Sequence record: NC_101838.1 | Strand: one strand, 5' to 3' | Length of the DNA: 64,000 nt | Source: a phage | Shown: positions 14,548-47,054 of the stretch, in pieces | Numbering within the stretch: the stretch's first letter is position 1 | Layout of the letters: each line of letters begins with the position of its first letter | The notes under the pieces: model-generated | What the model was told of the DNA's origin: nothing | The model's database searches: none | What the model saw: only the letters and a program-made list of their open reading frames with translations | Translations under genes and position numbers: made by a program

Positions 14548-14580
14548 ATCTAGATGGTATCGGAGTGTCCTGGAGAGGTT

Positions 14581-16862: not shown

Positions 16863-17539
16863 TGGCAATAAATAGGAAAGATGCTGCTGTAAGATCTTTT
16901 ATAGAAAAAATAATGAGGGACTACCACACCAGTATCAGGGCCAGAGTTGTCAGTGTAGACTACAGTATACCTTCTGCAGCCGTGCAGCCAATAGCTGAAA
17001 CTACGTTTGATGACGGAGATGTGGAGAGATACCCTCTTATCTATGACGTTCCAATTCAGGTGATGTCTGCAAACAGCGGAAAGGCAAGGTTAACACTCCC
17101 TATTAAGGCTGGAGATGTTGTAGGATTGCAGTTTTCAGAGAGAAATGAAAACAATAACGACGATCAACAAACTCACGGCCTGTTTCCAGGGTGGGCAATC
17201 ACCTCTGTTCATTCAGACTCAAACGCCTTACAGATCGATCCTGATAACGTAGAGTTATGGAACGATAGAGTTTATTTTAAACTGACACCTTCTGGCGATT
17301 TTGAGCTTCAAACACCTGGTGGGACATTACGGTGCGACAGCAGCGGGGAGTTTTCTTTCACTAACGGGGCTGCCAATTTGCGAGCTGCTGTGGATGGGAA
17401 TATCAGAATGAATGGTGCTACAATAGACCCATCTGGTAGAATTATAACTGCTGCAGGTGTGGATTTGGATTCATTCTATGCAGAATATAAAGGTCATACC
17501 CACTCTTGCCCTGATGGCGAGACAAGTGGACCGCACTAA
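16862..17539 (+). CDS. baseplate central spike protein (gpV-like, putative)
   Basis: 225 aa; C-terminal His/Cys motif YKGHTHSCPDGETSGPH resembling metal-binding spike apex; located just upstream of gp25-like gene. Confidence 0.45.
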   Translation: MAINRKDAAVRSFIEKIMRDYHTSIRARVVSVDYSIPSAAVQPIAETTFDDGDVERYPLIYDVPIQVMSANSGKARLTLPIKAGDVVGLQFSERNENNNDDQQTHGLFPGWAITSVHSDSNALQIDPDNVELWNDRVYFKLTPSGDFELQTPGGTLRCDSSGEFSFTNGAANLRAAVDGNIRMNGATIDPSGRIITAAGVDLDSFYAEYKGHTHSCPDGETSGPH

Positions 17540-17551: not shown

Positions 17552-18268
17552 ATGGCTACGCTTTATAGTGATATATTGATGGACCCGCAGACAGGCGATT
17601 TGGCGATAGACAAAGGTCTTGAGTTGATAGATTCAAACCAGGTAAGTCTGCGCCAGCGCTTGTGGATGAGGTTTAATACGTGGAAGGGGAGCTGGTACTT
17701 TGACGAGCTGTTTGGCTTCCCTTATATGGACTTTCTCAGCAAGAAGGTCATGAAGACTGTTCTTGATAACAAGATCATGGAAGTGGCAAGACAAGAGCCG
17801 GATGTGCTAAACATCATAAACTTCCAGTCTACCATGGACCGAAGATCGAGAACATACCAAGCGTTCTTCGAGGTTGTTACCAAAGAGAACGAGATTGTAA
17901 GGCTGGCTTTCGTAGGTCTTGATCAGTTCACCTACCCACAGCCTGATTCTGGGACAACCTCTCTCTGTGATGATGAGGGTTGGATTAAGTGGGCTAATAA
18001 ACTGTACTATCTGATCAACTTCAGATTGCCTAGAACAGGAGATGCCACATGGTGGAACCAGTATGCTGGCCCTGAGATGGAAAACCCGATCCCTGTAGGC
18101 TCTCTGTTGACTCAGGATAAAGATCTGCTGATGACTGAGGCAGAACAAACCATTAACCGCAATACCTGGACGCTTGCTCCAGATGAGCGCGAATACTCTG
18201 GTGTTATTGCTACCTCCAATGATGAGGCTATTGCCAACCAGTCTGGTCGTGCTATTGATGTTAACTAA
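17552..18268 (+). CDS. baseplate wedge protein, gp25/gpW-like
   Basis: N-terminal segment MATLYSDILMDPQTGDLAIDKG...GSWYFDELFG resembles the gp25/GPW family signature; 238 aa, so carries an extra C-terminal domain. Confidence 0.55.
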   Translation: MATLYSDILMDPQTGDLAIDKGLELIDSNQVSLRQRLWMRFNTWKGSWYFDELFGFPYMDFLSKKVMKTVLDNKIMEVARQEPDVLNIINFQSTMDRRSRTYQAFFEVVTKENEIVRLAFVGLDQFTYPQPDSGTTSLCDDEGWIKWANKLYYLINFRLPRTGDATWWNQYAGPEMENPIPVGSLLTQDKDLLMTEAEQTINRNTWTLAPDEREYSGVIATSNDEAIANQSGRAIDVN

Positions 18269-18277: not shown

Positions 18278-18946
18278 ATGGCTGTAGCTTATCCTACAAT
18301 ACCAATTCCAGATCTTGAAGATGCAGAAACAGTCTTGAGTGATGACTTCTTGGTTGTCAACCAGACTGATGGGACAAGAAAGGCTAAGATTGACGATGTT
18401 GTCAACGATCTTAGCATTACTAAGATAGTCTATTTCACAGAGGGTGGTTATCTTAAGAGCAAGAAGGACTTTGCTTATGACCCAGAAACTAAGCGCTACT
18501 ACACGTGGAACGGGGATTATCCTAAAATAATCCTCCCAGACTCCACTGTAGAGGGTGCTGGGGGTGTGTCTGCAAATGCCTGGTCTGTTTTTGGTGAGCT
18601 TGCTGCAACTTCTTCTGGCAGAATAGTTGATTACGGATCTATCGGTGGTCAGCTTGATATGGATCTTGAAGTTGCGGATACCTTTAAGGTTCGACTAACT
18701 TCAAATACCACAATCTCTTTTGAAAATCAAACAGAAGGTCTTGAAGGAGTGGCGAGAACTATAACCGTATGCATTACTCAGACCTCTGGCGGCAACAAAG
18801 TCTATTGGCCTGGTAATGTTAAATGGTCCTACGGAAGAGATCCTATCCTAACATTTACAGCTGGTGCAACAGATATTTTCAAGTTGGAAACCTACGACAA
18901 CGGGTTAACTTGGTACGGGGCACTGATTATCGCAGGAGCTATCTAA
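18278..18946 (+). CDS. fiber/spike anchor-domain protein
   Basis: 222 aa; N-terminal about 100 aa resemble the N-terminus of the 1479-aa fiber at 21581 (DDFLVVNQTDGTRKAKIDDVV versus DDYLVVQQPDLTRRVKIGDVV; FAYDPETKRYYTWNGDYP versus FAYFEEEDLYLRWKGEFP). Confidence 0.45.
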   Translation: MAVAYPTIPIPDLEDAETVLSDDFLVVNQTDGTRKAKIDDVVNDLSITKIVYFTEGGYLKSKKDFAYDPETKRYYTWNGDYPKIILPDSTVEGAGGVSANAWSVFGELAATSSGRIVDYGSIGGQLDMDLEVADTFKVRLTSNTTISFENQTEGLEGVARTITVCITQTSGGNKVYWPGNVKWSYGRDPILTFTAGATDIFKLETYDNGLTWYGALIIAGAI

Positions 18947-18947
18947 G

Positions 18948-21545
18948 ATGCGTATTCAACATAACATTGATAACGTATTTCAGATGATTGAGGGGCACAG
19001 GAAGTGCCTCGATAACAACACAGGTATTACCAACACCCCTACACAAAATAAGCTAGTAAACCCTGATGGTCTTATAGCTGCAGGGTGGGCAGGTAATAAG
19101 ATAAATAATGATTGGGCAATGCATGAGTCCCAAGCTGTGTTGATTCTGGGATACATTGAAGCATACAGGGCATCGAAAAGCGATTTCTATCTGGGTAGGG
19201 CAAAAGATGCTTGGGAAGCTTACAATAGCCATCTTCTGGGTGCATATGCAGTAGAAAGTAAAATGCAAAGATTGTCCCACTACCCTCTATCCACAGATGG
19301 GGTTCCATCACATGGTGGGTTTAAAGATGTAGTGGTGTCTTTTACCAACGGTAGAGGAAAAATCCCAGCTGGATCTCCGACATGGGGGGAATACCTTGAC
19401 AAGGCATTCCAAGCGTATAACGGTGTGTTAGGAAGAAACACTGTAGACTCTGATGTTTACGGTGGCACAGATGCTAACCCAGATTGGACAACATCCGGAT
19501 TAAGTTGGTGGGTTGAGTGGTACATAGCATGTGATGGTAACCGCTATTGGGCTAACGGTAGCATAGCCGACAGTGGTCATACGTCTGTAGAGTTCGGCAC
19601 AATCCAATTACAAGATAAGGGTGTTACAGGCAGCCACAAGGTGACCTATTGTGTAAGATTACCTCAAGAGCAGGGCGGATCGGTGATACCTGCAGGATCC
19701 CCTGTAATTGTAAATCCTATAAACGTGGTTGCAGATAATCAGGCCCCAGAGTTGGACGGGGAAGAAATGTGGTGTGACGCTTGTTATCAACTCTACACCT
19801 TGACAGGTGAGGAAAAGTATTACACCGCGTTTAAACAGTCTTACAACAAATTGCTTAATTTCAGTGATATAAACGCCTACGACAAACTGTTTAGGAAGAC
19901 CACGTTGATTAAGGCACCGTTTACAGATGGTACTTGCCTTGTTGCAGGAACAGTTCCTGTCATGAGCAGGGACAGTGACGGGTATATCAATTTTAGAATG
20001 AACGCACGCCAGCCTTGCGAAATAATTCAAAAAGGGACTACATACAAAATAGGCAGAGATGCTGAAATTGTTATGAATTTCGGAGGAGAAGGGGTTCTGT
20101 TCCAGCCACATTTCATCCTTAATGATGGCAACAATAACAAAAAACAGTACAGGATAGGAGTTCCTTTTGGAGGGGCAGAGGTAACAGAAATAGTTGCCAA
20201 GGTTACTGATTTCGTAGAGGTGGTTGGTAAAGACGGTAATCCATATCTCTTACCTAAAGAGGAAAACATTGCCGTAAGCGGTGGTGCTAGTGTTAGTATG
20301 CAGTATGATACCGACATTTACAACCACTCTGACAACTTCACCCGTTGTAATATAGCAAGAGGTAAAGTAACTTTCAATTTTGGAAGAGAGATTTCTTTAA
20401 ACTCAGTAACTTATCGCTCAGATGATGAGATGGTAAGGGTCAAATTTCTTGACAAAGACAGGTGGTTATGGTATGCTGATCTATATGCCACTAATGGACA
20501 ATGGGTAACAGAAACTCTTACTCTAGGAGATTTCAAACTAGATCCGACACAACCTCATCACACCGAAGAAGAGATTAAACCTTTCTTTGCTAATCCCAAG
20601 GGGCTAACCTCTGTAGATTTCAGCCTAAGCGACAGACAGATAGGTAATGGCTTGTTTGATCTATATTGCGTCAACACACTGCCGCAATTTTATATTGCAG
20701 ATAGAGATGCTTATCTAATTTGGTTTAGCGTGTGGATGGCAAGCAAGACAGAATCAACCGCTAAGGTTGGCGATTGCTATGTCAGAAACTACAAGCAAGG
20801 CGCATACAGGCACACACCAGGTGTGTTCCCTGCCGGAAAGGTGATAGATAAGGAAAACTATCTCTTAGAGGAAAAGCCAAATTGGCCATACCCTGGCATG
20901 CAATACCCAGCAGTATACTGCATGGGTGCAGAAAACATAGATCGCCATAGATTGTCAAATACAATAGGCTTTCTGTATGACGCTCAAGTCTGGTATAATA
21001 ATACATTTAAGACAGAGGGTCCAGTTGCCTCGCGTTATGTATGGCAGAGAGGTAATGAAGGGCTGACTGGTTGGTGGGAGATGGTAGATAACTCTAAGCT
21101 CCAGTCAAGATCTTTTGTTGCTGCGTGCCGCACAATCTATGAGCTCAAGAAACATAAAGAACCTGTTGATGAAAGATTATTCCTGTTCTGCCAGAAATGG
21201 GCATGGTTCCTCAACAGATTCCAGTCATCTCATTCAGGAAATCTGCCTACAGACTTTAACACCTCTGGGGGATATTCTTATCAAGACAGAGGGGACAGGA
21301 TGTGGGTGGTAGGTGAATGGCTTGCAGGTTGCTGCTGGCTAGGTCTGTGCGGGTATTCAGAGACAATACCTCAAATAGACATTGTTGTAGAAGCCTGTAT
21401 GAAGCTACTGCAAAAGCACCACTTCATCAATGGGGATAATGTTTTAAACGGCTGCTGGGCAGTTTCTGATCCGGTGGGCTATCACTCTGGCGAAATCCTT
21501 CGCGGCCTTGGCCTTTATGCTCAATACCGTGGATTGTACCTTTAA
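18948..21545 (+). CDS. large structural protein (possible tailspike or enzymatic fiber)
   Basis: 865 aa, Trp/Tyr-rich; translationally coupled to the anchor-domain gene; no catalytic motif verified. Confidence 0.35.
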   Translation: MRIQHNIDNVFQMIEGHRKCLDNNTGITNTPTQNKLVNPDGLIAAGWAGNKINNDWAMHESQAVLILGYIEAYRASKSDFYLGRAKDAWEAYNSHLLGAYAVESKMQRLSHYPLSTDGVPSHGGFKDVVVSFTNGRGKIPAGSPTWGEYLDKAFQAYNGVLGRNTVDSDVYGGTDANPDWTTSGLSWWVEWYIACDGNRYWANGSIADSGHTSVEFGTIQLQDKGVTGSHKVTYCVRLPQEQGGSVIPAGSPVIVNPINVVADNQAPELDGEEMWCDACYQLYTLTGEEKYYTAFKQSYNKLLNFSDINAYDKLFRKTTLIKAPFTDGTCLVAGTVPVMSRDSDGYINFRMNARQPCEIIQKGTTYKIGRDAEIVMNFGGEGVLFQPHFILNDGNNNKKQYRIGVPFGGAEVTEIVAKVTDFVEVVGKDGNPYLLPKEENIAVSGGASVSMQYDTDIYNHSDNFTRCNIARGKVTFNFGREISLNSVTYRSDDEMVRVKFLDKDRWLWYADLYATNGQWVTETLTLGDFKLDPTQPHHTEEEIKPFFANPKGLTSVDFSLSDRQIGNGLFDLYCVNTLPQFYIADRDAYLIWFSVWMASKTESTAKVGDCYVRNYKQGAYRHTPGVFPAGKVIDKENYLLEEKPNWPYPGMQYPAVYCMGAENIDRHRLSNTIGFLYDAQVWYNNTFKTEGPVASRYVWQRGNEGLTGWWEMVDNSKLQSRSFVAACRTIYELKKHKEPVDERLFLFCQKWAWFLNRFQSSHSGNLPTDFNTSGGYSYQDRGDRMWVVGEWLAGCCWLGLCGYSETIPQIDIVVEACMKLLQKHHFINGDNVLNGCWAVSDPVGYHSGEILRGLGLYAQYRGLYL

Positions 21546-21548
21546 CAT

Positions 21549-21569
21549 AGGGGGCTGTTTGCCCCCTTT
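21549..21569 (+). terminator. weak terminator or RNA hairpin
   Basis: AGGGGGC / GCCCCCT stem with 5-nt loop but only a short TTT tail. Confidence 0.35.
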
Positions 21570-21580
21570 CAGGAGAAAGA

Positions 21581-24500
21581 ATGGCTGATATTAAAGTTGT
21601 CAGAATTGAATCTCTTCCTGCCACTACCGCAGTGACAGAGGATGATTACCTGGTTGTTCAACAACCAGACCTGACCCGTCGTGTAAAAATTGGCGATGTT
21701 GTCCATGTGGATGGGACTGTTTCTCATGTAATCTCCTTTAAGGAAGGTGGTAAGTTAAACGGCCCAATGGATTTTGCCTATTTCGAAGAGGAAGATCTCT
21801 ACCTGCGTTGGAAAGGCGAATTTCCACACACTGTTCCTGCACTATCTTCACCGTACTCAGATGGTGGGATTACTGACGCTGCATGGATGGTATATACTGA
21901 CCCGTCCCTAAGGGAGGAGCTGGAATCTACCATTGGCGCATCTATGATCATGACAGCCGAAGGGCAGTCTGTCCAGGATGTAATGGATGTTACTGTTCAG
22001 ACAGCTAACGATGCTAAAGCACTTGCACAGCGTGTAGATTTTGGTACGGTGCACACTGTAGGTGATGTTATTCACCTTGATAACTTTGTGGGTCCTGCAG
22101 TTATTGAAGAGGGAAGAACCACCAACTACCCTTCTGTAGCAGCTGGTGAAAAATTTCTGAACGGTGTAGTATCTCGTCGTGATACTACAACTGTTGATGG
22201 TATTTTCCGTGGCGCTACATCCGGAGCCATGTATACCATCGCAGTAACCAACGGTGTAGCAACAACAAAAAGAATAGCACTTCGTGATGAATTTAAACGC
22301 CTGGAGGCAAACAACCCAACAAGAACAGTTATCCGTGCTGGAGATGATTTAAACACGGCAGGGTACTTGCAGCTTGACGCAACAGGCCGTTGGGGCATGT
22401 GGAACCAACAAACAGCCTCGTGGCAACCTCTTGCTATAGAGCAAGGCGGTACGGGGGCCAGAGATGCCGCTGGAGTCCGTATCAATATCGGGGCTTTCTA
22501 TAAGCAACGTGCAGCCCTTGAGCCAAATTTCAATATCAATAACTTGACTGGTAATCAGGATGGTGTATACTACCAGCCGATGACTGCTTATGCAACTGAG
22601 GCAAATGGTTACCCTGCAGGTTCTGGTGCTGGTCACTTGATTGTTTGGCAGAACAATGCTAACGGCGGTACAGGTTGTCGTCAGGAATACTATCCATTCT
22701 CTAACGTGGATGTTTGGTATTTGAGAACCTATCAGGCCAACACAAACCAGTGGACTGCATGGCAGCCAATGGTCAGACCTCGTAACGATGATACCTTTAG
22801 ATCGCACATCGGTCTCGGGTCTAGAAACTCCCCTACCTTCGGGCACCTTTACCTGTCTCAAAGTTCTGCTGATGTTAAGTCAGCATCAGGTATTGTTAAC
22901 GGGGACAAATACAGCGCTGACGGTGTCCTTGAGCATGGATATAGGATCTACTCTGAGGTAAGAAACGACAATAAGGCTTGGTTGACAATCCACCTGCACA
23001 AAGGTGCAAAAGGATCTGAAACCCATAGATATTTAGGTTTCCGCGAAGACGGCGTGTTAGACTGCCCTAAATACATGCAGGTTGGGGATCTTACTGGTCA
23101 GCTGACAAACTGGGGACTTGGAGAGTGGATTCGTAGTTCAGGAGCAGAAAGAGGCTTCTGGGGGTCCAAGAAAGCCGCCAAGATGGTTATCTGGGATGGT
23201 GGGATGGACGAATCCGGTAACGGCACTCTGGAATGGGGTGTTTATAACAACCGGAAGGCCAAGTGGGAACCTCTACCTCAAGCCGCAGGTGGCACCGGGG
23301 CTACAACTTTAGCAGATGCTCAGAATCTGTTCAAAGTTCCTATAGCAGCAGGTGTAAAAGACTTCTTAACACTGCCAAGAACCGCAGGGATGGAAGATGG
23401 GAAATACTACCCAATCATCGTTAGAACAGATCCATATTATGCTCCAGCAACTGGCACTGATATTACTATAGTCACCAGGTCTTCATCTGGAAATGACCCT
23501 ATGAACTGTGCCACCCTGCAGTGTCACTATAGAACTGGTGGCTGGACTGACAGGGGAGACTCTTTCTACGGGGTAGTAAATTTCTACCAGAATGAAAAAG
23601 CACTTCTTGGGATGGTTGCTCCAACAAGGGGTAAACAAGAGTATGTTGCTTTCTATGTAGAGGCTCGTGCTTTCCCTGTCAGCATATACGCAAGTAGAAA
23701 TGTTGTCGAAGTGTTTACCAGAGAGCAAGATTACCAGGTTGGGGCTGTAACAGACAATCAGGATGGGGTTAAGTTCGTTGCACCTCTTCAGTCAGCAGAT
23801 TTGAATCTTGCTATTCTTGGTGATAACAACACCAATACCAGACCTATTGTTGACTTCAAAGGTACTTCAGGGTTCTACACTGGGGGCGGCACACAGTGGC
23901 ACTATATAGGCACTGCTGAACGCTATGCTGTGATGAGCAAAATGAATATGCCAAAAGTCGAGCTATGGGCAGACGGTCTTGACTATTTGTGCTACGGCAG
24001 TCCTAGAAAGGCGTTATTCTCTAATGCAGGATTCCAGTGTGCATCCGATGGGACAGAGGATCTGACTAACGGTACGTTTACCTCTAAATGCGGTAATGGT
24101 GCTGGTCTCAAAGGTCAGGCAGAGTTCAGATCTACTCCGGAAGCGGGTCAAGTTATTGTTCGCGATGTTGTAGGCACAGCTCATAGATTCTACAACTTCA
24201 ACAAGGATGGTACTTTCTCAGCACCGGGTGGTTTTGTATGCCACACAGGTGCAGACTGGAACAACCAGTTCGGGAATAACAACCCTTCTAAAATAATGGC
24301 AGGCAATGTCAACGGACCTGAAGGATCGATGGTTGTTGGTGGGTTGTCTGTGGCATTTTCTGGAAACTACGCTTTCCAGATGGCAGGTCGTTTAGATCAG
24401 CTGTACACTCGTTCCATAGAGCAGGGAAACCACAGAGCGTGGAACAAAGTTATTCAGCACCGTGGTCAAGGGTTGGGAACTAATGACCTTAACGACTACA

Positions 24501-26020
24501 AGGCAGATCGTGAAGGGATTTACCATCAAGAGGCAAATGCCAACGCCACAGCGGAAAGAAATTACCCACCAGGGCAGCAGATGGCTGGTACGCTGATCGT
24601 TCTTAGAAACTCCGCTAACGAAGGAACAGGTTGTATCCAGATATATAAAATGTATCTTGGTGGAACATGGGAAAGGTATTACAATAACCTTGGCAGCGGA
24701 ATGGCTTGGAGTCCTTGGAAGAGAACAAGCTTCCCAGAAAACACAACTGCTCCAGTTATGCCTGACTTGTGGTTGCCTTTAACCTCTAACCTAAAACCTG
24801 CATTGGGTGAAGGTGAGATGGTCTTCTCCAGACCTTCCACAGCAACCTATTTCACTAAGCGGGGTGTTATGGCTGTTGCACAAGCAAACCAACCACGTTT
24901 TGAAAGAGATGGGTTGCTTATCGAGGGGCAAAGGACAAACCTCATGCTCAACAGTGAGGACCCAAGCAAGTGGGGTGCACAGCAAGCGATTACTGTCGGT
25001 AGCACTGTAACAAATACTAACGGCACAAAAGGCGCAAGATTTACAGTAAACACCACATCCGGTTTAGAAACAACAGCGTTAAACCTTGCTACAGTTCCAG
25101 CCACCAGAGGTGCCGATGTAACAGGTGCTGAGAAATTCTGTACTGGGTCTATTATTGCAAGGGGAGGTAAAGCGAACCAGAGATTACGTATAAGATTCGA
25201 CATGTACGACGGATCCACCACAACATTTCAAGGTGATGCTTATGTTAACCTGTCAACACTTGAAGTTAAAACAACAGGTGTTGCAGCGGGGAGAATTAAA
25301 GTAAAAGCTGAGAGATGGCAAACAGCCGGACCTGCTTGGATAAGGGTTGTTGCTACGTTTGAGGCAGTGTCCTCTGACAGGAATATCGGTTGCCAGTTCC
25401 AGATTGCCCCGCCGGAGAGTTCTCAACATGCCGTAGGGGATTGGGTTGACGTTGCAATACCTCAGTTTGAGTTGGGATCTTGTGAGTCCTCGTTTATCCC
25501 TACAGGGTCTTCACCTGTAACCAGGGCGGCAGATCTTTGTAAATTCCCAATGACTGATAACCTAGCGCCCAGACCATTCACTATCGCCGCTACGGTTGAT
25601 GCCAACTGGAGAGGCTGGGGCAAAGCTCCTAACGCAGCCCCTAGGGTTATTGATACAGAGGGTCATCAATCCGGTGCTGCATTTATCATGGGGTTTGGCT
25701 CTGCAACAAATATTGCGGAGGACGGTTATCCATACTGTGATATTGGAGGGTCAAACAGACGTGTTTACGAGATGGCTAAAGCCCGTAAATTGAAAATTGG
25801 GTTCAGGATAAAAGATGACGGTAAAACCTGCTCTTTTGCTAACGGACTGGTGAGCACGGAAACGCAGTCTTCTTGGGAATTCCTAGCAGGAGGCGCTTTC
25901 ATCCGCATTGGTGGTCAAACGGCGACAGGTGAAAGACACTTATTTGGTCATATTAAGGACATAAGAGTTTGGAACTCTGCACTGACAGACACCCAGCTTA
26001 TGATGGAGAGTGTTGAATAA
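21581..26020 (+). CDS. giant tail fiber/spike protein with C-terminal lectin-like (LamG-type) domain
   Basis: 1479 aa; N-terminal anchor domain shared with 18278 ORF; C-terminus ...HLFGHIKDIRVWNSALTDTQL matches the concanavalin/LamG-type motif. Confidence 0.5.
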   Translation: MADIKVVRIESLPATTAVTEDDYLVVQQPDLTRRVKIGDVVHVDGTVSHVISFKEGGKLNGPMDFAYFEEEDLYLRWKGEFPHTVPALSSPYSDGGITDAAWMVYTDPSLREELESTIGASMIMTAEGQSVQDVMDVTVQTANDAKALAQRVDFGTVHTVGDVIHLDNFVGPAVIEEGRTTNYPSVAAGEKFLNGVVSRRDTTTVDGIFRGATSGAMYTIAVTNGVATTKRIALRDEFKRLEANNPTRTVIRAGDDLNTAGYLQLDATGRWGMWNQQTASWQPLAIEQGGTGARDAAGVRINIGAFYKQRAALEPNFNINNLTGNQDGVYYQPMTAYATEANGYPAGSGAGHLIVWQNNANGGTGCRQEYYPFSNVDVWYLRTYQANTNQWTAWQPMVRPRNDDTFRSHIGLGSRNSPTFGHLYLSQSSADVKSASGIVNGDKYSADGVLEHGYRIYSEVRNDNKAWLTIHLHKGAKGSETHRYLGFREDGVLDCPKYMQVGDLTGQLTNWGLGEWIRSSGAERGFWGSKKAAKMVIWDGGMDESGNGTLEWGVYNNRKAKWEPLPQAAGGTGATTLADAQNLFKVPIAAGVKDFLTLPRTAGMEDGKYYPIIVRTDPYYAPATGTDITIVTRSSSGNDPMNCATLQCHYRTGGWTDRGDSFYGVVNFYQNEKALLGMVAPTRGKQEYVAFYVEARAFPVSIYASRNVVEVFTREQDYQVGAVTDNQDGVKFVAPLQSADLNLAILGDNNTNTRPIVDFKGTSGFYTGGGTQWHYIGTAERYAVMSKMNMPKVELWADGLDYLCYGSPRKALFSNAGFQCASDGTEDLTNGTFTSKCGNGAGLKGQAEFRSTPEAGQVIVRDVVGTAHRFYNFNKDGTFSAPGGFVCHTGADWNNQFGNNNPSKIMAGNVNGPEGSMVVGGLSVAFSGNYAFQMAGRLDQLYTRSIEQGNHRAWNKVIQHRGQGLGTNDLNDYKADREGIYHQEANANATAERNYPPGQQMAGTLIVLRNSANEGTGCIQIYKMYLGGTWERYYNNLGSGMAWSPWKRTSFPENTTAPVMPDLWLPLTSNLKPALGEGEMVFSRPSTATYFTKRGVMAVAQANQPRFERDGLLIEGQRTNLMLNSEDPSKWGAQQAITVGSTVTNTNGTKGARFTVNTTSGLETTALNLATVPATRGADVTGAEKFCTGSIIARGGKANQRLRIRFDMYDGSTTTFQGDAYVNLSTLEVKTTGVAAGRIKVKAERWQTAGPAWIRVVATFEAVSSDRNIGCQFQIAPPESSQHAVGDWVDVAIPQFELGSCESSFIPTGSSPVTRAADLCKFPMTDNLAPRPFTIAATVDANWRGWGKAPNAAPRVIDTEGHQSGAAFIMGFGSATNIAEDGYPYCDIGGSNRRVYEMAKARKLKIGFRIKDDGKTCSFANGLVSTETQSSWEFLAGGAFIRIGGQTATGERHLFGHIKDIRVWNSALTDTQLMMESVE

Positions 26021-26352
26021 TGAATACTTTTACCCTTGGGTTTACTGACAGGGAGGATTTTAACGGTTTCATGGACGAAATCGGCTTTTACGAGAATGAG
26101 GTGTTACAAAACACCCTTCTTGTAGAGGTTGTCGGGTTCATTTACACAGAGACTGGAGACACTTATGAGGCCGAAGATGAATTTGGCAACATGGTTGTCT
26201 ACCCGGTTTGCGAGAAAAGTGAATTGTTTTATGTTAACGTTCTGGCTCTGGACGAGGATGCAGAAAACATCGTCTCTAAAAGCGGAAAAGTTGTAGATCC
26301 GATAAGGTTGAACATGTTCGACCCATCAGTATCCACCTTGGAAGCACTTTAA
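26020..26352 (+). CDS. hypothetical acidic protein (possible fiber assembly factor)
   Basis: 110 aa; start overlaps upstream stop (TAATG); followed by terminator. Confidence 0.3.
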   Translation: MNTFTLGFTDREDFNGFMDEIGFYENEVLQNTLLVEVVGFIYTETGDTYEAEDEFGNMVVYPVCEKSELFYVNVLALDEDAENIVSKSGKVVDPIRLNMFDPSVSTLEAL

Positions 26353-26358
26353 AGTATT

Positions 26359-26388
26359 GCCCTCGCTTCGGCGGGGGCTTTTTGTTTG
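26359..26388 (+). terminator. intrinsic terminator
   Basis: GCCCTCGC / GCGGGGGC stem, TTCG loop, TTTTTGTTTG tail. Confidence 0.65.
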
Positions 26389-26390
26389 TA

Positions 26391-26419
26391 TTGCGTATTA
26401 ACTTAAAATCTGGTAAAAT
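26391..26419 (+). promoter_or_regulatory. sigma70-like promoter (TTGCGT-17-TGgTAAAAT)
   Basis: -35 26391-26396, -10 26414-26419; follows terminator; drives M/L/K/J-like cassette. Confidence 0.5.
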
Positions 26420-26450
26420 AACTATCATGATTGTTTAACCTGGAGGCACA

Positions 26451-27041
26451 ATGTTTTTATGGGAAAGGCCTAGATACCTTCCAGATATCAGATTGGAGCT
26501 GCTGGCAGATATTGTTACGTTTAAAAGTCCGTTTACAGGTAAAACGCAAAAAGTAACCTATGCCACACCTAACTGGAAAGGCACTTTGACGGTTTCCAAT
26601 ATCAGCGAGTCACAGTTGCTAGAGCTTAAGAGCTTTGTTGATCAGGTGTATAAAGATGGAAACATCTTTCTTATTAAAACTTACGGTCACTCAGTTACAG
26701 CTAATGAGCCAATCGCCCTTGGGCCTACTGGTAACGACGATTTTTTGAAGACGGTTGGGTGGGAGCCAAACAGAGACATAGCTAGAGCTGGGGATAAAAT
26801 ATCTGTCAATGATGAATTGAAAGTGGTAACAGCTCCAGTGCGTAGCGATGGTGTTGGGTCTGCTGTTATAAGCATATCTCCAAGACTTAGAAAACCTATT
26901 GCCGCAGGGGACACTACGAAGATAATAACTCAATCTCCGAAGGGTAGGTTTCATATCAGAGATATTTATAAAATTAAGCAAAAAGTCGATGCTATGCAAA
27001 AAGGTGATAATATAGTTATCAACTTCTTTGAGGATTTCTAA
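26451..27041 (+). CDS. minor tail protein, lambda gpM-like (tentative)
   Basis: 196 aa; region WKGTLTVSNISESQLLELKSFVDQVYKDGNIFL resembles lambda M (recalled); own promoter and GGAGG RBS. Confidence 0.4.
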   Translation: MFLWERPRYLPDIRLELLADIVTFKSPFTGKTQKVTYATPNWKGTLTVSNISESQLLELKSFVDQVYKDGNIFLIKTYGHSVTANEPIALGPTGNDDFLKTVGWEPNRDIARAGDKISVNDELKVVTAPVRSDGVGSAVISISPRLRKPIAAGDTTKIITQSPKGRFHIRDIYKIKQKVDAMQKGDNIVINFFEDF

Positions 27042-27042
27042 G

Positions 27043-27594
27043 ATGATCAGAGCGCCATTAGATAATTTATTTCTTGAAAAGCTGGAGCTTGATGGTGTTG
27101 AGATCTTAATTGCTGCAAAGCTGGAGCTACCGACAGGAACTGTCAGGGTGTGCTCAGGCACTGGTGTTGTAGTAATTGAGGGGCAACATTTTATAGGGAT
27201 AGGTGGATCAGCAACGTTAACTGCTGTGTCTGAGAAAGATGCCACCAACTTCGGATCTGTGGTAGCGACATTGAACGGGTTTGATCCTAAGTATGTGGGT
27301 GATCTTCTGAAGACGGAGTATTCCGGTTGTCGTGCCACGTTGTACATTACCGCTATGGAGAATGGTCTGCCTGTCACAACTAATGGCTTGTTTGACGGCC
27401 TTATAACAGATATGGCTATTCAGACAGGGGAGAATAGTGCTTTGTCCATATCCATCTCTTCCATCTTCAACAGTTGGTTAAGAGGTTTTCCTTATCGGTA
27501 CACGGAGGAAAGCCACAGCTCAAGAAACGATAATGACAGATTTTTTAAATATGTGGATCAGGTGGCGAGCCGCCCGATCATTTGGGAGGTTTAA
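27043..27594 (+). CDS. minor tail protein, gpL-position (tentative)
   Basis: 184 aa from ATG 27043 (track start 27028 is TTG); GAGGA RBS; between M-like and K-like genes. Confidence 0.3.
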   Translation: MIRAPLDNLFLEKLELDGVEILIAAKLELPTGTVRVCSGTGVVVIEGQHFIGIGGSATLTAVSEKDATNFGSVVATLNGFDPKYVGDLLKTEYSGCRATLYITAMENGLPVTTNGLFDGLITDMAIQTGENSALSISISSIFNSWLRGFPYRYTEESHSSRNDNDRFFKYVDQVASRPIIWEV

Positions 27595-28019
27595 TGAGCA
27601 CACATCCTCGTCTAGTGGACTGGCAAGAAAGATTGTGGAAAGTATTTGACGAAGAGGCCACCATACCTTTTGAATGGGGATTCCACGATTGTTGCACCTT
27701 TGCAGCTAAGTGTGTTGATGCCCAATACGGAACAGATTTTCTTTCTAACTTCGAAGGAACGTATAAAACAGAGTTGGAAAGCAAAAGATGGTGCATGCTT
27801 CGTTTCAAAACCACACACCTGCCTACTATTTTTGATCTCTTTCTGACTCGGCTGGATACTCCTAAACAGGTTCAGCGTGGAGATATTGTCATTTTCGAAG
27901 GTCTGAACGGGCTCACCGCTGGTGTGTTCTGGAACAACCAGATTTGGGCGAAAGGTGATAAAGGGGTCTTTATGTTCGACATGAAAGATTCTATCGTTGT
28001 TGATGTCTGGAGGTATTAA
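27594..28019 (+). CDS. tail tip assembly protein, gpK-position, Cys-containing
   Basis: 141 aa from ATG 27594 overlapping upstream stop; motif FEWGFHDCCTF; directly upstream of J-like gene. Confidence 0.3.
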   Translation: MSTHPRLVDWQERLWKVFDEEATIPFEWGFHDCCTFAAKCVDAQYGTDFLSNFEGTYKTELESKRWCMLRFKTTHLPTIFDLFLTRLDTPKQVQRGDIVIFEGLNGLTAGVFWNNQIWAKGDKGVFMFDMKDSIVVDVWRY

Positions 28020-31000
28020 TGCCAATTGCAATGATTGATAACATCGTTGCTTCTGCAAGATCTTCAAGTTATGACTGGAACGCATCCAAGGCAGCTCTGG
28101 CTGACAGCCTGAACACTGTTACCACCAGAACTTTGGATAAGATTTTTGAGGGCAACAAATCTTACAGAAGTCAGCAAGATAGACAAAAGCTTCTCAGATC
28201 TTCTGCTGCACCTTGCTCGGTAGTGTATGGGAAGACACGCACATCCGGATTGCTTGCGTTTTTGGAGCAGGATAGCGACAGAACCCTCCATTGTGCTATT
28301 GTTCTTGCCAATCACCCTCTGGAAGGTGTAGAAGATATACTTATCGACGGTAATCCTATTTCCTCGTATGGAGATTTGGTATCGTGGGAGCTACATAACG
28401 ACAGAAAAACATCTGATCCTTTCATGGGCACACACTGCCCATCATGGTCACCGGACATGATAGGTAGAGGGATCAGTTGGCTACGTGCCAGTTTCAAGTT
28501 TGACCCTAACAAGTTTCCTTTTGGGTTGCCAAACGTTACACTCGTTAAGGTTGGTAAAAAATGCTATGATCCTCGTATCAGTAAAGAGGTGTACACCAAT
28601 AACGCAGCCTTGGTGATCCTAGACTATTTAAGAACGTACCTTAAATGTCCTGACGAAACCATCAACTGGGAGTCCTTTAAGGAGGCCGCCAACATATGCG
28701 ACGAGGCGGTAAAAAACGCTGACGGAACCAGTGAGCGACGTTACACCATTAACGGTGAGTTTGACATGGATGAGGCCCCAGCAAGCATTATGGCAGAAAT
28801 GCTGAAAGCTTGTGGTGCAGATCTCAGCTATGTAGCTGGTAAGTATGGTTTGCTGGTTGGTGCATACTATGGCCCGGCAACAATGACACTGAGTGAGGAT
28901 TGTGTCTGTGGTGAGGTCAAGATCTATCCGGAAGCCTCATTTGACAAAAGATCCAACACAATAACCGGCAGATTCACCAGTCCTACCAAAGGGTATTCTG
29001 AAACAGATTTTCCATCAGTGTTTGTCTCAGAGTGGATAGAGAAGGATGGAGAAAGAAAGATAATCGATATAGACTATCGCTTTGTTACCAGTCCTTATCA
29101 AGCTCAGCGTGTTTCTGCAATCTTCCTAAGACGTGCCAGAGCTGGCAGGATTATTGAAGTCACCTGCAATATGCGAGGTTTCAAATTTAAACCTGGTCGT
29201 TACGTTACAATGGACCTCCCAAGTATTGGTATAGTGGGCCAAGAAATGAGAGTTCTTGAATGGGAGTTTACCAAAAAGGGTGGTGTCAAGGTAAAACTTC
29301 GTCAAGATGCTAAAGAGTGGAATGATGCCACAGGACAACTTCCGGATTCTGGCGATGTAGATATTCCAATATCTCCATCTGGTGTAGCTCAACCGCAAAA
29401 CTTCAGATATTCCGTTCTCCAAGCTGGAGAAGTAACTCACGGTGTTTTGGCTTGGGACAACGTTGGGACCTACGCTCAAAATATTGTGCAGGTAAGAAAG
29501 AACGGAGAGATTGTTTGGACAGCACAAACAGTTGAGCAGTTTGTCCGAGTAGAAGGCTTGACCAAAGGGTCATACACAGCAACCGTGGTTGCAACATCTT
29601 ATAAAGGTGGCGTATCTCCGGAAGCATATTGTGAGTTCAACATTCAGGCACCTGAAGCTCCTGTTTCTGTAGAGGTTAAACAGGGATACTTTGCTATTAC
29701 CCTGATCCCGCACAGCAGAGACTTGGCTAGTGTAAGCACCCAGTACGACTTTTGGACATCTGGGATGACAAGATTGCCAGATACCAGTGATGCAACCGTT
29801 ACTTCAAAAGCCACTCGTATGGGTGTTGGTTCAACTTGGACATCTGAAGGTCTGCAGAACGATAAGATTTATTACTGGTATATCAGGACAACAAATGCTT
29901 TTGGTTCATCTGCTTTTGTGGAGTGTGCAGCCCACTGTTACACATCCATAGAAGATCTTATGCCACAGATTGATGCTGAGTTCAAAAAGACAGAGACTTA
30001 TAAAGAGCTTACCGCCAATCTTGATAATGCAGTCAAGGAAATGGATAAAAATGTTGGTGCAGTCAATGACCGTGTTACTAGCATTTTTGAAGAGCTTGGG
30101 GACACAATAGAGGGTGTTGTCAGAGAGACGACAGAAAAATTTACAGGGGTTAATGGAGAAATTTCTGCCCTTAACAGTAAGCTGGTAGCAGCTCAGCAAT
30201 CCTTTGACGATAAACTTGCAGCAGAGTCTGGTAGGCTTGGGTCACTAATCGAGACAACAAATAGATCAACCGTTGATCTTGTTAATCGTAAAACTCAAGC
30301 ATTGAGTGAGCAAATAACTGCAACTCAAGGTACTCTGCGGGAAGAGTTGAAGAACACTGAGAGCAAACTTAACTCCTCTATTCAAGAAACCAACAAGGCA
30401 ACAACCGATCTGCTAAATAAGACAACGGAAGCTATTAAGCAGGATCTGGTGGCAGCTACAGGGAAGATCACCAAGCTGGAAGATGATGTGCAGAAAGAGG
30501 TTGCCAATCTGCAAGCATCTATTCAAGAAACTAATAGTACAACAGTTGATCTTGTTAATAATACAGCCACAGCGATCCGTCAAGAACTTACCTCTGCAAA
30601 ACAAGAAATTGTTGACGAAATGGGTAATATTGATGAGCTCAGGGCTACAGTATCTAATACCTCTAAAGCTGTAACAACACTTGAGGGTAAAATAGATGCT
30701 CAGTGGGGAGCTAAGATTCAGGTAGACTCTGCAGGGAATAAGTATGTTGCAGGTATCCAGTTGGGGATGGAAGGGTCTGGGGGCCAAGTTCAATCCTACT
30801 TCATGGTTAGTGCAAACAATTTTGCGGTATACAACCCAGGAAATGGAACAGCAACCCTTGCTTTCGCAATCAAGAACAACCAAGCGTTCTTGAAAGACGC
30901 TTTTATAGAGAACGGGACGATTTCATCTGCCAAGATCGCACAAGAAATTTCGTCAAACAACTACGATGGCAACGGGTACCATAAATACGGTTGGTATATT

Positions 31001-31618
31001 AACAAGAACGGGCACGCCCAATTTATGGATGTGTGGGTGAAAGGCAACATCAACGCCAGTTCTGGTAACTTCACAGGGGCAGTTAACGCCACTAGTGGTA
31101 CCTTCCGTGGGGATGTTTATGCCAATAATGGTAGCTTTAGAGGCACCATAGATGCAACCGGAGGTACCTTCCGTGGTCGTGTAGAAGCTTCTGTTATCCG
31201 CGCTAACCAGTTCGAAGGTGCAATTGTTGCACACAGGACTTACGGGGATTGTGCTCCAGTATATAACTCCCAGCAAAGGGTTTGCCGTTGGAGGTGGAGA
31301 TACGTAGATAACGTTTCAGGTCAGGGTAAGAACGTAACATTCTTCTTTAAACTGAATGGTACTCTTGCCAGCTCCCAACTGAATGCATGGATAGCTGGTC
31401 ATCAGATCCTTGCTGGCAAGAAGTATTTTAACGACAACAACGGCATGTGTGCGGTAGGGATAACAGGTCTGGGTGAACAAACTATAGACATTGTTATCGA
31501 GATTTACACACCGTGGTCAACGTCGAGCGTGACAGGTGTCACAATCTCCTGTCCTACTGTGATAGTAAGTCGTTCAAACTCTAGCTTCCAGGGACCTTGG
31601 AACGAGTCTCACGACTAA
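28019..31618 (+). CDS. host specificity / central tail fiber protein, lambda gpJ-like
   Basis: 1199 aa; central coiled-coil region with repeated ...TTDLLNKT.../...TTVDLVNNT... blocks; C-terminal tandem GNFTGAVNATSGTFRGDVYANNGSFRGTIDATGGTFRG repeats; follows M/L/K-like genes. Confidence 0.55.
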   Translation: MPIAMIDNIVASARSSSYDWNASKAALADSLNTVTTRTLDKIFEGNKSYRSQQDRQKLLRSSAAPCSVVYGKTRTSGLLAFLEQDSDRTLHCAIVLANHPLEGVEDILIDGNPISSYGDLVSWELHNDRKTSDPFMGTHCPSWSPDMIGRGISWLRASFKFDPNKFPFGLPNVTLVKVGKKCYDPRISKEVYTNNAALVILDYLRTYLKCPDETINWESFKEAANICDEAVKNADGTSERRYTINGEFDMDEAPASIMAEMLKACGADLSYVAGKYGLLVGAYYGPATMTLSEDCVCGEVKIYPEASFDKRSNTITGRFTSPTKGYSETDFPSVFVSEWIEKDGERKIIDIDYRFVTSPYQAQRVSAIFLRRARAGRIIEVTCNMRGFKFKPGRYVTMDLPSIGIVGQEMRVLEWEFTKKGGVKVKLRQDAKEWNDATGQLPDSGDVDIPISPSGVAQPQNFRYSVLQAGEVTHGVLAWDNVGTYAQNIVQVRKNGEIVWTAQTVEQFVRVEGLTKGSYTATVVATSYKGGVSPEAYCEFNIQAPEAPVSVEVKQGYFAITLIPHSRDLASVSTQYDFWTSGMTRLPDTSDATVTSKATRMGVGSTWTSEGLQNDKIYYWYIRTTNAFGSSAFVECAAHCYTSIEDLMPQIDAEFKKTETYKELTANLDNAVKEMDKNVGAVNDRVTSIFEELGDTIEGVVRETTEKFTGVNGEISALNSKLVAAQQSFDDKLAAESGRLGSLIETTNRSTVDLVNRKTQALSEQITATQGTLREELKNTESKLNSSIQETNKATTDLLNKTTEAIKQDLVAATGKITKLEDDVQKEVANLQASIQETNSTTVDLVNNTATAIRQELTSAKQEIVDEMGNIDELRATVSNTSKAVTTLEGKIDAQWGAKIQVDSAGNKYVAGIQLGMEGSGGQVQSYFMVSANNFAVYNPGNGTATLAFAIKNNQAFLKDAFIENGTISSAKIAQEISSNNYDGNGYHKYGWYINKNGHAQFMDVWVKGNINASSGNFTGAVNATSGTFRGDVYANNGSFRGTIDATGGTFRGRVEASVIRANQFEGAIVAHRTYGDCAPVYNSQQRVCRWRWRYVDNVSGQGKNVTFFFKLNGTLASSQLNAWIAGHQILAGKKYFNDNNGMCAVGITGLGEQTIDIVIEIYTPWSTSSVTGVTISCPTVIVSRSNSSFQGPWNESHD

Positions 31619-31624
31619 CCTTTA

Positions 31625-31653
31625 AAGCCCCGCTTCGGCGGGGTTTATTTTTA
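31625..31653 (+). terminator. intrinsic terminator after J-like gene
   Basis: AAGCCCCGC / GCGGGGTTT stem, TTCG loop, TTTATTTTTA tail. Confidence 0.7.
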
Positions 31654-31661
31654 TGCTCAGA

Positions 31662-31690
31662 TTGACTATTGTTACAAAATTTGGTAAAAT
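31662..31690 (+). promoter_or_regulatory. sigma70-like promoter (TTGACT-17-TGgTAAAAT)
   Basis: -35 31662-31667, -10 31685-31690; follows terminator after J-like gene. Confidence 0.55.
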
Positions 31691-31723
31691 ACCTTGTAGA
31701 GATTTTCATACCGGAGGAGTGAC

Positions 31724-33214
31724 GTGGCTAAGTATGGATTGACAGAGGCTGGTTTCGTTATACCAACCCTAAATGACCTAATCGTTGAAACTAAGCAAAG
31801 CCTGATCCGTGCTTTTGGCGAAAACTTCAACGTACAAAGTAACTCCGTTGCAGATAAGCTGACCACTATTTTCAACGAGCGAGAGTATCAACTTATTCTT
31901 ATGGCAGCATCTGTATACGCATCACAGACGCTGTATGGGGCAGAAGGTATTTACCTGGATGAGCTTCTTGGAAGACAGGGTATTTACCGAAGAGGCCGTT
32001 CTAAATCATCAGGTACCTGCCAGTTGACAATCAACACAACTGTGCCGTACAATATGATTTATGATTCCAAAACTTATACGCTAGACAGTGGCAACTTTGT
32101 TCTTAGCAACGATGTGCAAGTAGCAGGGAATCTTATTGCTCACAGAATAAATGCTCCAGACCTAAGGATTGGGAAATACAACTTCCAAATTACCAACCAG
32201 ACAGATGGAAGTATCAAAACAAAAAGCCTGGTTTTAACAGATAAGTCTCTGGACTCTTCTGATTTGCCAAGCTTTTACGGAGAGATTAAGCAATTCATTG
32301 TCGATAATACAACCCTGTTGAACGACGATTTGATTCAGATCGATATGTTGACAGGAACGTTGTGGATAGGGTACAATTCGAATCTTGATCAAGTTGGACT
32401 TAACAGCAGGGTAGATTTCAGAGTATCCCCGATTGTAGGGGAAAGAACTATCACACTGGATGTTATCGCTAACGAGGCTGGTGAGCTGTCAAGAGAGGCA
32501 GAAACCGTGACAACAATGTCACCTACTCCTAGTGGATTTATCAAGCTTACCAACAGAGAAAGATTCAATGAGGGCAGGGATGTTGAGAAAGACTCAGAGT
32601 ATCGCTTAAGAGCTTCCAGCACAAAACAGTTAACATCTAAGGCTACCCGTCCTGCAATCCTTAGCGCTGTAAGCGAGGTGAAAGGTGTTGAGAAAGTGAG
32701 AGTGTTCTCCAACAACACCGATAAAACTGATGCTAAAGGTATACCTCCTTACAAGTTCCAAGTGGTTGTGTTTGGTGGTGCAACGGAGGACATTTGCCAG
32801 GCACTTTACCAAACTATAGCTTGTACGAACAGGACTTATGGTAATATTTTCTACGATGTCACTACATCTGACGGTCAAACTGAAAGAATTTATTACTCCA
32901 AGGCAAATACCTACCGCCTAGATGTAAGAATTACCTACTCCGGTGCTGCGCTTTCTACAACCGAAAAAGATGCCATTGTAGAGGCTCTTTTGCAGGTTGT
33001 TAACGGACTGGATGTTGCAGATACGTTGTATAATATCCAATTGGTAGGTGCTGCATCTGCTGCTGTGTCAATAGGTAGATTTAATAGACTGGTAATTCAA
33101 GTTAAACCAGTAGGGGCTTCTGATGAAGCTTACACTACAAACGATATTGTTGCGAACATGACCGAGGTGTTTGACCTCGACGAAAGTAATATAACTTTCC
33201 AACAAACTATTTAA
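31724..33214 (+). CDS. baseplate wedge protein, J-like (gp6/gpJ family, putative)
   Basis: 496 aa; GTG start with GGAGGA RBS downstream of promoter 31662-31690; N-terminus GLTEAGFVIPTLNDLIVETKQSLIRAFGENF resembles Baseplate_J family. Confidence 0.45.
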   Translation: MAKYGLTEAGFVIPTLNDLIVETKQSLIRAFGENFNVQSNSVADKLTTIFNEREYQLILMAASVYASQTLYGAEGIYLDELLGRQGIYRRGRSKSSGTCQLTINTTVPYNMIYDSKTYTLDSGNFVLSNDVQVAGNLIAHRINAPDLRIGKYNFQITNQTDGSIKTKSLVLTDKSLDSSDLPSFYGEIKQFIVDNTTLLNDDLIQIDMLTGTLWIGYNSNLDQVGLNSRVDFRVSPIVGERTITLDVIANEAGELSREAETVTTMSPTPSGFIKLTNRERFNEGRDVEKDSEYRLRASSTKQLTSKATRPAILSAVSEVKGVEKVRVFSNNTDKTDAKGIPPYKFQVVVFGGATEDICQALYQTIACTNRTYGNIFYDVTTSDGQTERIYYSKANTYRLDVRITYSGAALSTTEKDAIVEALLQVVNGLDVADTLYNIQLVGAASAAVSIGRFNRLVIQVKPVGASDEAYTTNDIVANMTEVFDLDESNITFQQTI

Positions 33215-33225
33215 GGCGGCGAGAT

Positions 33226-46804: not shown

Positions 46805-46816
46805 CAGGAGGCAAAT

Positions 46817-46846: not shown

Positions 46847-46850
46847 ATAA

Positions 46851-47051: not shown

Positions 47052-47054
47052 TTC

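Follow-up and report, generated by a model that had tools for sequence, protein, structure and literature searches.

Phages are known to exchange tail fibres and receptor binders, and ring and hub parts are normally meaningful only at the end of a non-contractile tube. Distal tail (Dit) proteins are ring-forming in siphoviruses, and the tips of the gene transfer agent (GTA) particle RcGTA and of siphophage R4C are built from a Dit, a hub, a peptidase and a 'megatron'. Here we describe an element that follows the same four-part logic in a contractile-tailed phage: a cassette of four tightly packed genes at positions 26451-31618 of a 64,000-nucleotide stretch of sequence record NC_101838.1, the whole of which is called the window below. 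The cassette is a complete siphovirus-type tail-tip module, made up of a Dit-like protein, a split hub, an NlpC/P60-fold accessory protein and a J-type fibre.

Judged by sequence identity, the window comes from an rV5-like myovirus of the genus Vequintavirus, a well-sampled contractile-tailed Escherichia coli phage of ~136 kb. Positions 26000-34000 are 99.2% identical to Escherichia phage JeffSchatz (Bas55, Vequintavirus), and some 120 further rV5-like genomes match them at 92-99% identity. Phages of the rV5 group are in wide use in E. coli cocktails, and their gene-to-fibre assignment is unresolved (PMC8594841). Public records call the large gene of the cassette 'tip attachment protein J', 'central tail fiber J' or 'host specificity protein J', and one of its neighbours 'distal tail protein'; the small genes carry inconsistent names ('tail fiber protein', 'baseplate protein', 'cell wall hydrolase') or are left as 'hypothetical protein'. 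The rV5 paper noted COG4733 for the J orthologue, and the BASEL study described the J gene as a lateral tail fibre with a fibronectin domain. In the literature we searched, only such gene-level labels were found, with no paper treating the four genes as a complete, Queuovirinae-related and genus-specific tip module and none asking how a hub/Dit complex fits a contractile baseplate.

The four-gene cassette and its siphovirus relatives

The four genes, which like every gene between 7.8 and 46 kb lie on the + strand, encode proteins of 196, 183, 141 and 1199 amino acids downstream of a strong terminator. Outside Vequintavirus, the J-like protein finds its best matches in central fibres from Queuovirinae siphoviruses (residues 48-1044, at 52-53% identity). 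In Seuratvirus SLUR76, genes for 194, 194, 144 and 1040 amino acids directly follow the tape measure and match the four genes of the window in order, at 32, 40, 45 and 53% identity. A scan of IMG/VR with the DUF6950 family, that of the 141-residue protein, gave 80 loci, all of which, apart from three Vequintavirus-like contigs, lie on contigs of 6-85 kb. Most of these loci have all four genes in the same order, and many have an open reading frame (ORF) of ~950-1140 amino acids that ends a few bases before the first gene. The gene order in SLUR76 and in IMG/VR thus places the module, in its native setting, at the end of a non-contractile tail. All that a siphovirus tip needs is covered except the tape measure and gpI; the DUF6950 gene ends at 28019, where J starts, with no further ORF, and so no gpI gene, between the K-like gene and J. 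An original prediction, made from the letters of the window alone, is upheld to this extent: the cassette is a genuine siphovirus tip module, collinear with SLUR76 and most of the 80 loci.

The 1199-residue protein matches phrog_31, 'central tail fiber J', with an E-value of 9e-165. Its hub domains (residues 1-492; 28019-29494) have a family profile that matches the T5 hub pb3: the profile of the N-terminal 500 residues aligns with pb3 residues 266-782 (E 2e-36), with T1 J (4e-14) and with lambda J residues 265-481 (2.7e-8). Ig/FN3-like domains follow at residues 493-652 (29495-29974), where PF24489 (Ig_J_second) scores 104.9 bits against a cut-off of 27 and PF24421 reaches 24.4 bits, under its cut-off of 29. 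Next come a coiled-coil shaft with Apolipoprotein-type coiled-coil matches (residues ~655-890; 29981-30688) and a Phage_Tail_Tip domain (residues 878-1017; 30650-31069; PF09327, 131 bits against a cut-off of 22). The expectation that a J-like protein would be found here is therefore sound, with the gpJ-type domains PF09327 and PF24489 above their Pfam cut-offs, and the Baseplate_J domain expected downstream was likewise confirmed in the gene at 31724-33214 (PF04865). The best PDB sequence match of the protein is lambda J (8iyk_J, E 1e-26), and BLASTP finds 30-31% identity to lambda J over residues 498-669 and 891-1046 (31% to lambda residues 667-836 and 30% to residues 858-990). There is no full-length equivalence to lambda J: the NCBIfam model lambda_TipJ scores 152 bits against a cut-off of 1950, and only residues 497-1037 align. 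The genomic position is also unlike that of lambda J, the gene lying 13.5 kb downstream of the tape-measure gene and after the phage's own hub and spike.

The C-terminal ~160 residues of J (31136-31618) are the candidate receptor-binding end. They lie outside the part alignable to SLUR76 J and are essentially genus-specific: tblastn finds them in 116 Vequintavirus records, nearly all at 90% identity or more and two at 80-90%, and elsewhere gives one weak match (30%), to the end of a Seuratvirus-like J. In Queuovirinae a gene of its own, downstream of J, encodes the terminal receptor binder, and in phages without that gene the task is presumed to fall to a C-terminal extension of J (PMC8594841). 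By analogy, the ~155-residue C-terminal extension of the window's J may bind the receptor directly.

Single-sequence PDB searches with the three small proteins gave no matches, and a word-indexed single-sequence search with the second of them (c188, 188 residues when read from position 27028) found only three near-identical proteins; relatives were gathered with alignments instead. Family profiles and a fold search were informative, the structure models having been built on alignments of database proteins. The first protein (196 residues; 26451-27041) matches phrog_1302, 'distal tail protein' (E 1e-49), and is 32% identical to the first gene after the tape measure of Seuratvirus. The three best PDB matches of its family profile are T5-type Dit (pb9) sequences, at weak E-values of 0.004-0.1. 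No Pfam match to gpM (Phage_min_tail) was seen in this protein or in 30 relatives, and hhalign gave gpM a probability of 0.4%. In the distant IMG/VR loci L067, L068 and L071 the Dit-like gene encodes ~335 rather than ~196 residues, and of the 390 positions of PHROG 2048 only 173-359 align to the 188-residue protein. Fused or extended forms of the Dit or hub piece may thus occur in some lineages.

The second protein (183 residues; 27043-27594) is a gpL-like N-terminal hub piece, 40% identical to its Seuratvirus homologue. Its family profile matches T5 pb3 residues 17-178 (E 5e-6), so that it and the N-terminus of J, which takes up pb3 266-782, together reconstitute one siphovirus hub; the hub is split in two, as in lambda L and J. 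An AlphaFold (AF2) model of the protein (pLDDT 79) was matched by Foldseek to T5 pb3 (2e-6), to lambda gpL (8iyk_L; E 2.6e-5, probability 1.0, TM 0.54) and to the T1 tip (1e-4), and also to the corresponding chains of the Chi, JBD30 and GTA tips. On the model, the protein shares the fold of gpL and the N-terminal hub domain. Two of its 28 relatives match the hub N-terminal domain PF09931, none of the 28 matches PF05100 (Phage_tail_L), and the hhalign probability for gpL is 0.3%. Lambda gpL has a C-terminal cysteine cluster for an iron-sulfur centre. No such cluster was found here, with two cysteines in the whole 183-residue protein and none in the conserved columns of 69 relatives.

The third protein (141 residues; 27594-28019) belongs to DUF6950 (PF22262, 116 bits). 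Its AF2 model (pLDDT 94) matches MepS/Spr (E 5e-5, probability 1.0, TM ~0.6), and on this model we are confident of an NlpC/P60 fold. Asp36-Cys37 is invariant in 74 relatives, and no conserved histidine was found among the 74 sequences, which makes the usual Cys-His-His/Asp catalytic triad doubtful and leaves the putative label 'cell wall hydrolase' unproven. The sequences suggest that the protein may be a non-canonical or inactive NlpC/P60 member. The annotation of lambda K, C40 (NlpC/P60) peptidase, names the superfamily that the DUF6950 fold matches. Among the traits of gpK, no Pfam NLPC_P60 match was found (only DUF6950), hhalign to lambda K gave 9%, and 141 residues leave no space for an MPN domain.

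The original prediction had likened the small genes to lambda M, L and K. As sequence families this does not stand: the three proteins have no Pfam or NCBIfam match to the M, L or K families, NCBIfam gives none of them a name, Pfam is also negative in the M-like and L-like relatives, and family profiles compared with the lambda sequences by hhalign reach probabilities of 0.3-9%, so that membership at the level of sequence is rejected. The likeness to lambda M, L and K is one of position and fold, and the closest relatives are in Queuovirinae rather than lambda. The names that are supported are Dit-like protein, gpL-like hub piece, and NlpC/P60-fold DUF6950 protein lacking a conserved catalytic histidine. 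The predicted ORF positions themselves are correct, apart from slightly later starts for two genes in annotated relatives, which begin the gpL-like gene at 27043 (against 27028) and the DUF6950 gene at 27594 (against 27582).

Distribution, conservation and transcription

Relatives were found through the Baseplate_J wedge protein encoded next to the cassette, and their loci were then compared, gene order being followed by tblastn in Seunavirus SSE121, Certrevirus phiTE and Aeromonas phage 2L372X (wedge protein identity 60, 51 and 42%, respectively). None of the four cassette genes was found in these three phages, despite 11-15 tail and baseplate genes in order. Between sheath initiator and wedge, phiTE has nothing but a terminator, 2L372X has one fibre gene, and SSE121 has three genes, homologous to those for the 222-residue and 865-residue proteins of the window and to the N-terminus of its 1479-residue protein. 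The slot is empty in Septuagintavirus W70, where the wedge gene W70_114 adjoins the phrog_4233 gene W70_115, and in phi92 it holds gp140-144, none reported as J-like. Among 50,697 phage records, 117 Vequintavirus records carry the 183-residue protein at 99% identity or more, and 116 records carry the wedge protein at 95% or more. None of the other 224 matches to the 183-residue protein reaches 60% identity, and those listed, a spread sample of them, all lie in genomes of at most 85 kb. On these sequence searches, essentially every Vequintavirus has the cassette, and no other myovirus lineage that we examined has it. 'Vibrio phage vB_VibM_83AMN' was considered as a second myovirus with the module and set aside, as its record places the phage in Queuovirinae. 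Some 18-22 records (MG0656xx; 'Campylobacter phage C14, C15, D1, A112b ...') that give Campylobacter jejuni as host are 96-99% identical here to E. coli Vequintavirus, and these host labels look doubtful.

That the cassette was acquired from a siphovirus is well supported. The alternative is that the four genes are ordinary baseplate parts, vertically inherited and lost in other genera; the original prediction had itself named, as the result that would tell against it, ordinary baseplate genes unrelated to lambda M/L/K/J that all relatives carry at this locus. The four genes are indeed universal in Vequintavirus and occupy this locus also in L086/L087, a divergent relative from metagenomic data, and their composition is identical to that of the flanks. 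However, at least five related genera or lineages with collinear operons lack them, two of these having an empty slot, so that sister genera without the cassette do exist and the result named by the prediction was not obtained. Their homologues outside Vequintavirus listed in the spread sample are in genomes of at most 85 kb, and those in IMG/VR are on contigs of 6-85 kb, many directly after an ORF the size of a tape measure. Moreover, J at 53% identity to Seuratvirus is closer than some core baseplate proteins are between myovirus genera. We regard vertical inheritance as very improbable and already largely refuted. With the cassette of L086/L087 at the same locus and its nonsynonymous divergence (dN) like that of the flanks, the capture predates that split, and a G+C content of the cassette equal to that of its flanks fits an old, fully adapted acquisition.

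The cassette is also its own predicted late transcription unit, with a terminator-promoter pair on each side as had been proposed. Upstream, an intrinsic terminator at 26359-26378 (+ strand; 8-bp stem with 7 G-C pairs, and a T run), which has the same sequence as rV5 t041, is followed by the late-promoter motif TGGTAAAATA at 26411-26420 (+ strand; rV5 P040). Downstream, an intrinsic terminator at 31625-31646 (+ strand; 9-bp stem with 6 G-C pairs) is followed by the sigma-70-like promoter of the wedge operon at 31662-31691 (+ strand; rV5 P036), which includes the late motif at 31682. The two terminators are the strongest predictions in 20 kb, and the motif begins ~35-40 nt past each of them. 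P040 and P036, as putative late promoters, and t041 had already been predicted for rV5 (PMC3606486, Table S4). The motif has four exact copies in the window (7779, 11300, 26411 and 31682), all intergenic and on the + strand, with 0.17 expected, and upstream of three of the four, at a distance of ~35-75 nt, is a hairpin terminator whose loop is TTCG. The tail chaperone gene is preceded by the same terminator-promoter template. As this template is common to other late units, the cassette uses the phage's own late signals, and a reading of the flanking junctions as the direct-repeat scar of an insertion is ruled out. In phiTE a terminator stands at exactly this inter-operon boundary, which is a natural site for the addition of a module.

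The reading frames of all four genes are intact in ~117 genomes, and dN/dS, where it can be estimated, is ~0.02-0.03, an approximate value since synonymous divergence (dS) from L086/L087 is saturated. Against L086/L087, dN is 0.08-0.12 in the cassette and 0.05-0.09 in the flanking baseplate genes. The cassette is under strong purifying selection. We give next to no credence, therefore, to the idea that it is an inert passenger, a decaying remnant of recombination: its role is undemonstrated, and nothing more specific speaks for that idea, whereas intact frames, low dN/dS, a dedicated predicted late promoter and the detection of the rV5 orthologue of J in virions all speak against it.

Within the genus, J is ~96-100% identical outside residues 650-900, and its alleles of 1199 and 1279 residues differ only there, in the coiled-coil shaft. 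In positions 29901-30650, the coiled-coil part, nucleotide identity to L086 is 98%, compared with ~74% in the rest of the cassette, and the shaft looks like a recently exchanged recombination cassette. The DUF6950 protein is 59% identical to that of L086 (dN 0.39), compared with 84-89% for its three neighbours (dN ~0.1); it thus appears to evolve ~4 times faster than they do in this comparison, and is 98-99% conserved within the genus. Either faster evolution or replacement in one lineage could account for this. The original prediction saw the cassette as a determinant of host range, and the pattern of variation lends this no support, since save for the length of the coiled coil it is near-invariant in ~117 genomes. 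Near-invariance of this kind marks a conserved device for structure or adhesion rather than a determinant of host range in rapid change, and agrees with the BASEL finding that most of the fibre locus is conserved (PMC8594841).

The fibre slot and the surrounding baseplate operon

Eight genes (18278-31618) lie between the sheath initiator and the Baseplate_J wedge protein. The original prediction took these ~13 kb for one insertion. The intervening genes are real, and they fall into two layers rather than one: an older fibre set (the 222-residue and 865-residue proteins and the N-terminus of the 1479-residue protein), common to Seunavirus, and the ~5.3-kb cassette, found among the myovirus lineages examined in Vequintavirus only. 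In the older layer, the 222-residue fibre protein (18278-18946; phrog_7760) has the predicted anchor domain (Tail_spike_N, PF18668, 41 bits against a cut-off of 25) and is 41% identical to its SSE121 homologue at the same position. The 865-residue tail or fibre protein (18948-21545; phrog_2871, 'tail protein'), 35% identical to SSE121 gp038, is likewise as predicted. The 1479-residue fibre protein (21581-26020) has an N-terminal Tail_spike_N domain and is allelically variable. Its description as a LamG-type fibre is weak, as the Laminin_G_3 match is sub-threshold (18.7 bits, cut-off 27.6), and alternative alleles of ~1273 residues end in Peptidase_S74, a self-cleaving chaperone domain. The 110-residue ORF that accompanies the 1479-residue allele (26020-26352; phrog_1361) is missing from HeinrichReichert and from L086/L087, which carry the ~1273-residue Peptidase_S74 allele; it may be a separate chaperone for the longer fibre.

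The slot sits in a baseplate operon of Mu/P2/phi92 type, whose gene roles were assigned from PHROG and Pfam scans together with the JeffSchatz annotation. The sheath (9329-10705), tube (10716-11189), chaperone (11352-11825) and tape measure (12140-14476) genes are followed by those for the tube initiator (14554-15465), plug (15478-15858), hub (15858-16862) and P2-type spike (16862-17539). The sheath initiator (gp25/W-like, 238 residues; 17552-18268; phrog_4233 and phrog_120, 'baseplate wedge subunit'), the positional counterpart of phi92 gp139, forms the upstream edge of the slot. The downstream edge is formed by the Baseplate_J wedge protein (31724-33214; PF04865, phrog_6), which is followed by a second wedge protein in the position of P2 gpI (33226-33912; phrog_4056, 'baseplate protein') and, after 33912, by additional fibre genes. 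Tube initiator, plug, hub, spike, sheath initiator and the two wedge proteins are thus all present and in order. The original prediction was right that the genes downstream of the tape measure follow the Mu/P2 order with others interposed, and cryo-EM of phi92 gives the same roles to the corresponding genes gp134-139 and gp145/146 (PMC13450770).

Two side observations concern this part of the window. The sheath-initiator protein has no Pfam family at E<=0.01 here, and a 92%-identical homologue carries PF10934 (Sheath_initiator), a discrepancy that probably reflects a difference in library version or threshold. At ~46000-54000 both GC skew and AT skew flip sign, and an annotated relative has a block of small genes on the - strand from ~46.9 kb; the change in skew and the small - strand genes mark the end of the late structural operons.

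A proposed place for the module in the virion, and known counterparts

We suggest, with a probability of about 0.65, that an ancestor of Vequintavirus captured the module, that the J trimer serves as an accessory fibre on a base of Dit-like and gpL-like proteins, and that the DUF6950 protein is an assembly factor. The ancestor would have taken up a tip module like that of Queuovirinae through recombination within the fibre slot, where a terminator meets a promoter, and the J trimer would have become one accessory fibre of a multivalent baseplate. The Dit-like and gpL-like proteins would form a cone-shaped base that holds and docks J, the DUF6950 protein would act as lambda gpK does, and the target of the conserved C-terminal domain of J would be a surface structure that is itself conserved and does not vary from strain to strain. 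In the classical lambda assembly pathway the tape measure is added only after J has come together with I, L and K, which makes a tape-measure-free J/L complex plausible as a stand-alone unit.

J is likely to be present in virions. Its orthologue in rV5, gp37 (1279 residues), was detected in virions by mass spectrometry with four peptides (4.2% coverage), and the published peptides map to the window protein. Several points nonetheless weigh against our proposal. Two probably non-structural proteins scored like gp37 in the same experiment, and the three small proteins, gp38-40, are absent from the 19 proteins found in rV5 virions. No cryo-EM structure of a Vequintavirus was found in the literature searched. 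A Dit hexamer and a hub trimer normally need a tube and tape measure above them, so that docking on the wedge is awkward, and the Dit assignment itself is weak (PDB profile E-values of 0.004-0.1). Finally, the compositional test for foreign origin shows no trace in G+C, and the direction of transfer and the donor are inferred from distribution and not from a rooted phylogeny.

The mass spectrometry data, with gp37 detected and gp38-40 not, would also fit another arrangement, in which J alone is a virion component, attached by its hub-like N-terminus, and the three small proteins are assembly factors or chaperones that are not retained. The ~4-fold faster evolution of the DUF6950 protein points the same way, as does lambda gpK, its analogue in position and fold, which is an assembly factor and is not known to remain in mature tails. 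However, with 19 proteins the rV5 experiment was shallow, and small, low-copy proteins are easily missed. In addition, Dit and gpL-type parts are integral in the tip structures of T5, lambda and T1, and conservation of c188 at 99% or more in 117 genomes fits a structural interface. We consider it unlikely that all three small proteins are chaperones.

The original prediction had called the cassette a central fibre. This was an assumption, in a phage that encodes its own hub and spike. A module on the tail axis as a true central fibre, with the myovirus hub and spike sitting above or inside a Dit ring and J cone, would account for the retention of all hub domains that close the siphovirus tail tube, and low abundance in mass spectrometry would fit three copies per virion. 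Yet the phage has a tube initiator, plug, hub and P2-type spike of its own in standard order, the proteins that hold the axis in the related phi92 and phiTE structures (PMC13450770). The spike apex must also stay free for envelope piercing, and the cassette comes without a second tape measure or tube gene. An axial position is, in our view, improbable.

Beyond an accessory fibre on a Dit/gpL-like base, we entertain, as a tentative and rather doubtful extension, that particles carry the fully assembled siphovirus tip cone (Dit ring, gpL-like trimer and J trimer) as an organelle of the contractile baseplate. The hub, which normally closes a tube, would then have been turned into a socket for a fibre, or into a second sensor that is triggered by a receptor and signals to the baseplate. 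If true, this would be a tail architecture new among solved myoviruses, and the locus would become considerably more interesting if the full cone were shown on the virion. As it stands, the exchange between phages is unusually large: a whole tip complex, ring and hub included, has become fixed in a contractile-tailed genus and has been preserved there with little change. A docking site for it on the baseplate would show the reach of tail-module re-use across morphotypes.

Among known systems, phi92 and other rV5 relatives with 'Swiss-army-knife' baseplates have the same baseplate core, the fibre slot and several co-expressed fibre sets. The phi92 slot, however, contains gp140-144 (endosialidase and others) and no J-type module, and the slots of phiTE and Septuagintavirus are empty. 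The tails of RcGTA and R4C are non-contractile, unlike that of the window phage, and their likeness is distant: GTA particle chains and the R4C megatron are matched by the c188 model and the J N-terminal profile at E-values of 1e-2 to 1e-4. In the T5 tip, pb9 is matched, weakly, by the profile of the 196-residue protein, and c188 and the J N-terminus cover pb3 17-178 and 266-782; the T5 hub is one polypeptide, whereas that of the window is split, and in T5 the distal fibre pb4 and the receptor binder pb5 are separate proteins.

Lambda M-L-K-I-J shares with the window the functional order of ring protein, hub accessory, NlpC/P60 protein and J, and lambda J has the same Ig, tail-tip and hub regions. 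Unlike the lambda set, the cassette lacks a gpI gene; its K-like protein is without an MPN domain and its L-like protein without a conserved cysteine cluster, and its ring protein is the size of T5 Dit, not of gpM. Closest of all outside the genus, in the phage collection, are the Queuovirinae (Seuratvirus/Nonagvirus; SLUR76, CAjan and 9g-like phages), with the same four genes in the same order (194/194/144/1040 residues, against 196/183/141/1199 in the window). In Queuovirinae separate receptor-binding genes come after J (PMC8594841), whereas in the window J has its extension of ~155 residues and is then followed by the wedge gene. The Queuovirinae module directly follows the tape measure and ends a non-contractile tail, whereas that of the window sits among the genes of a contractile baseplate.

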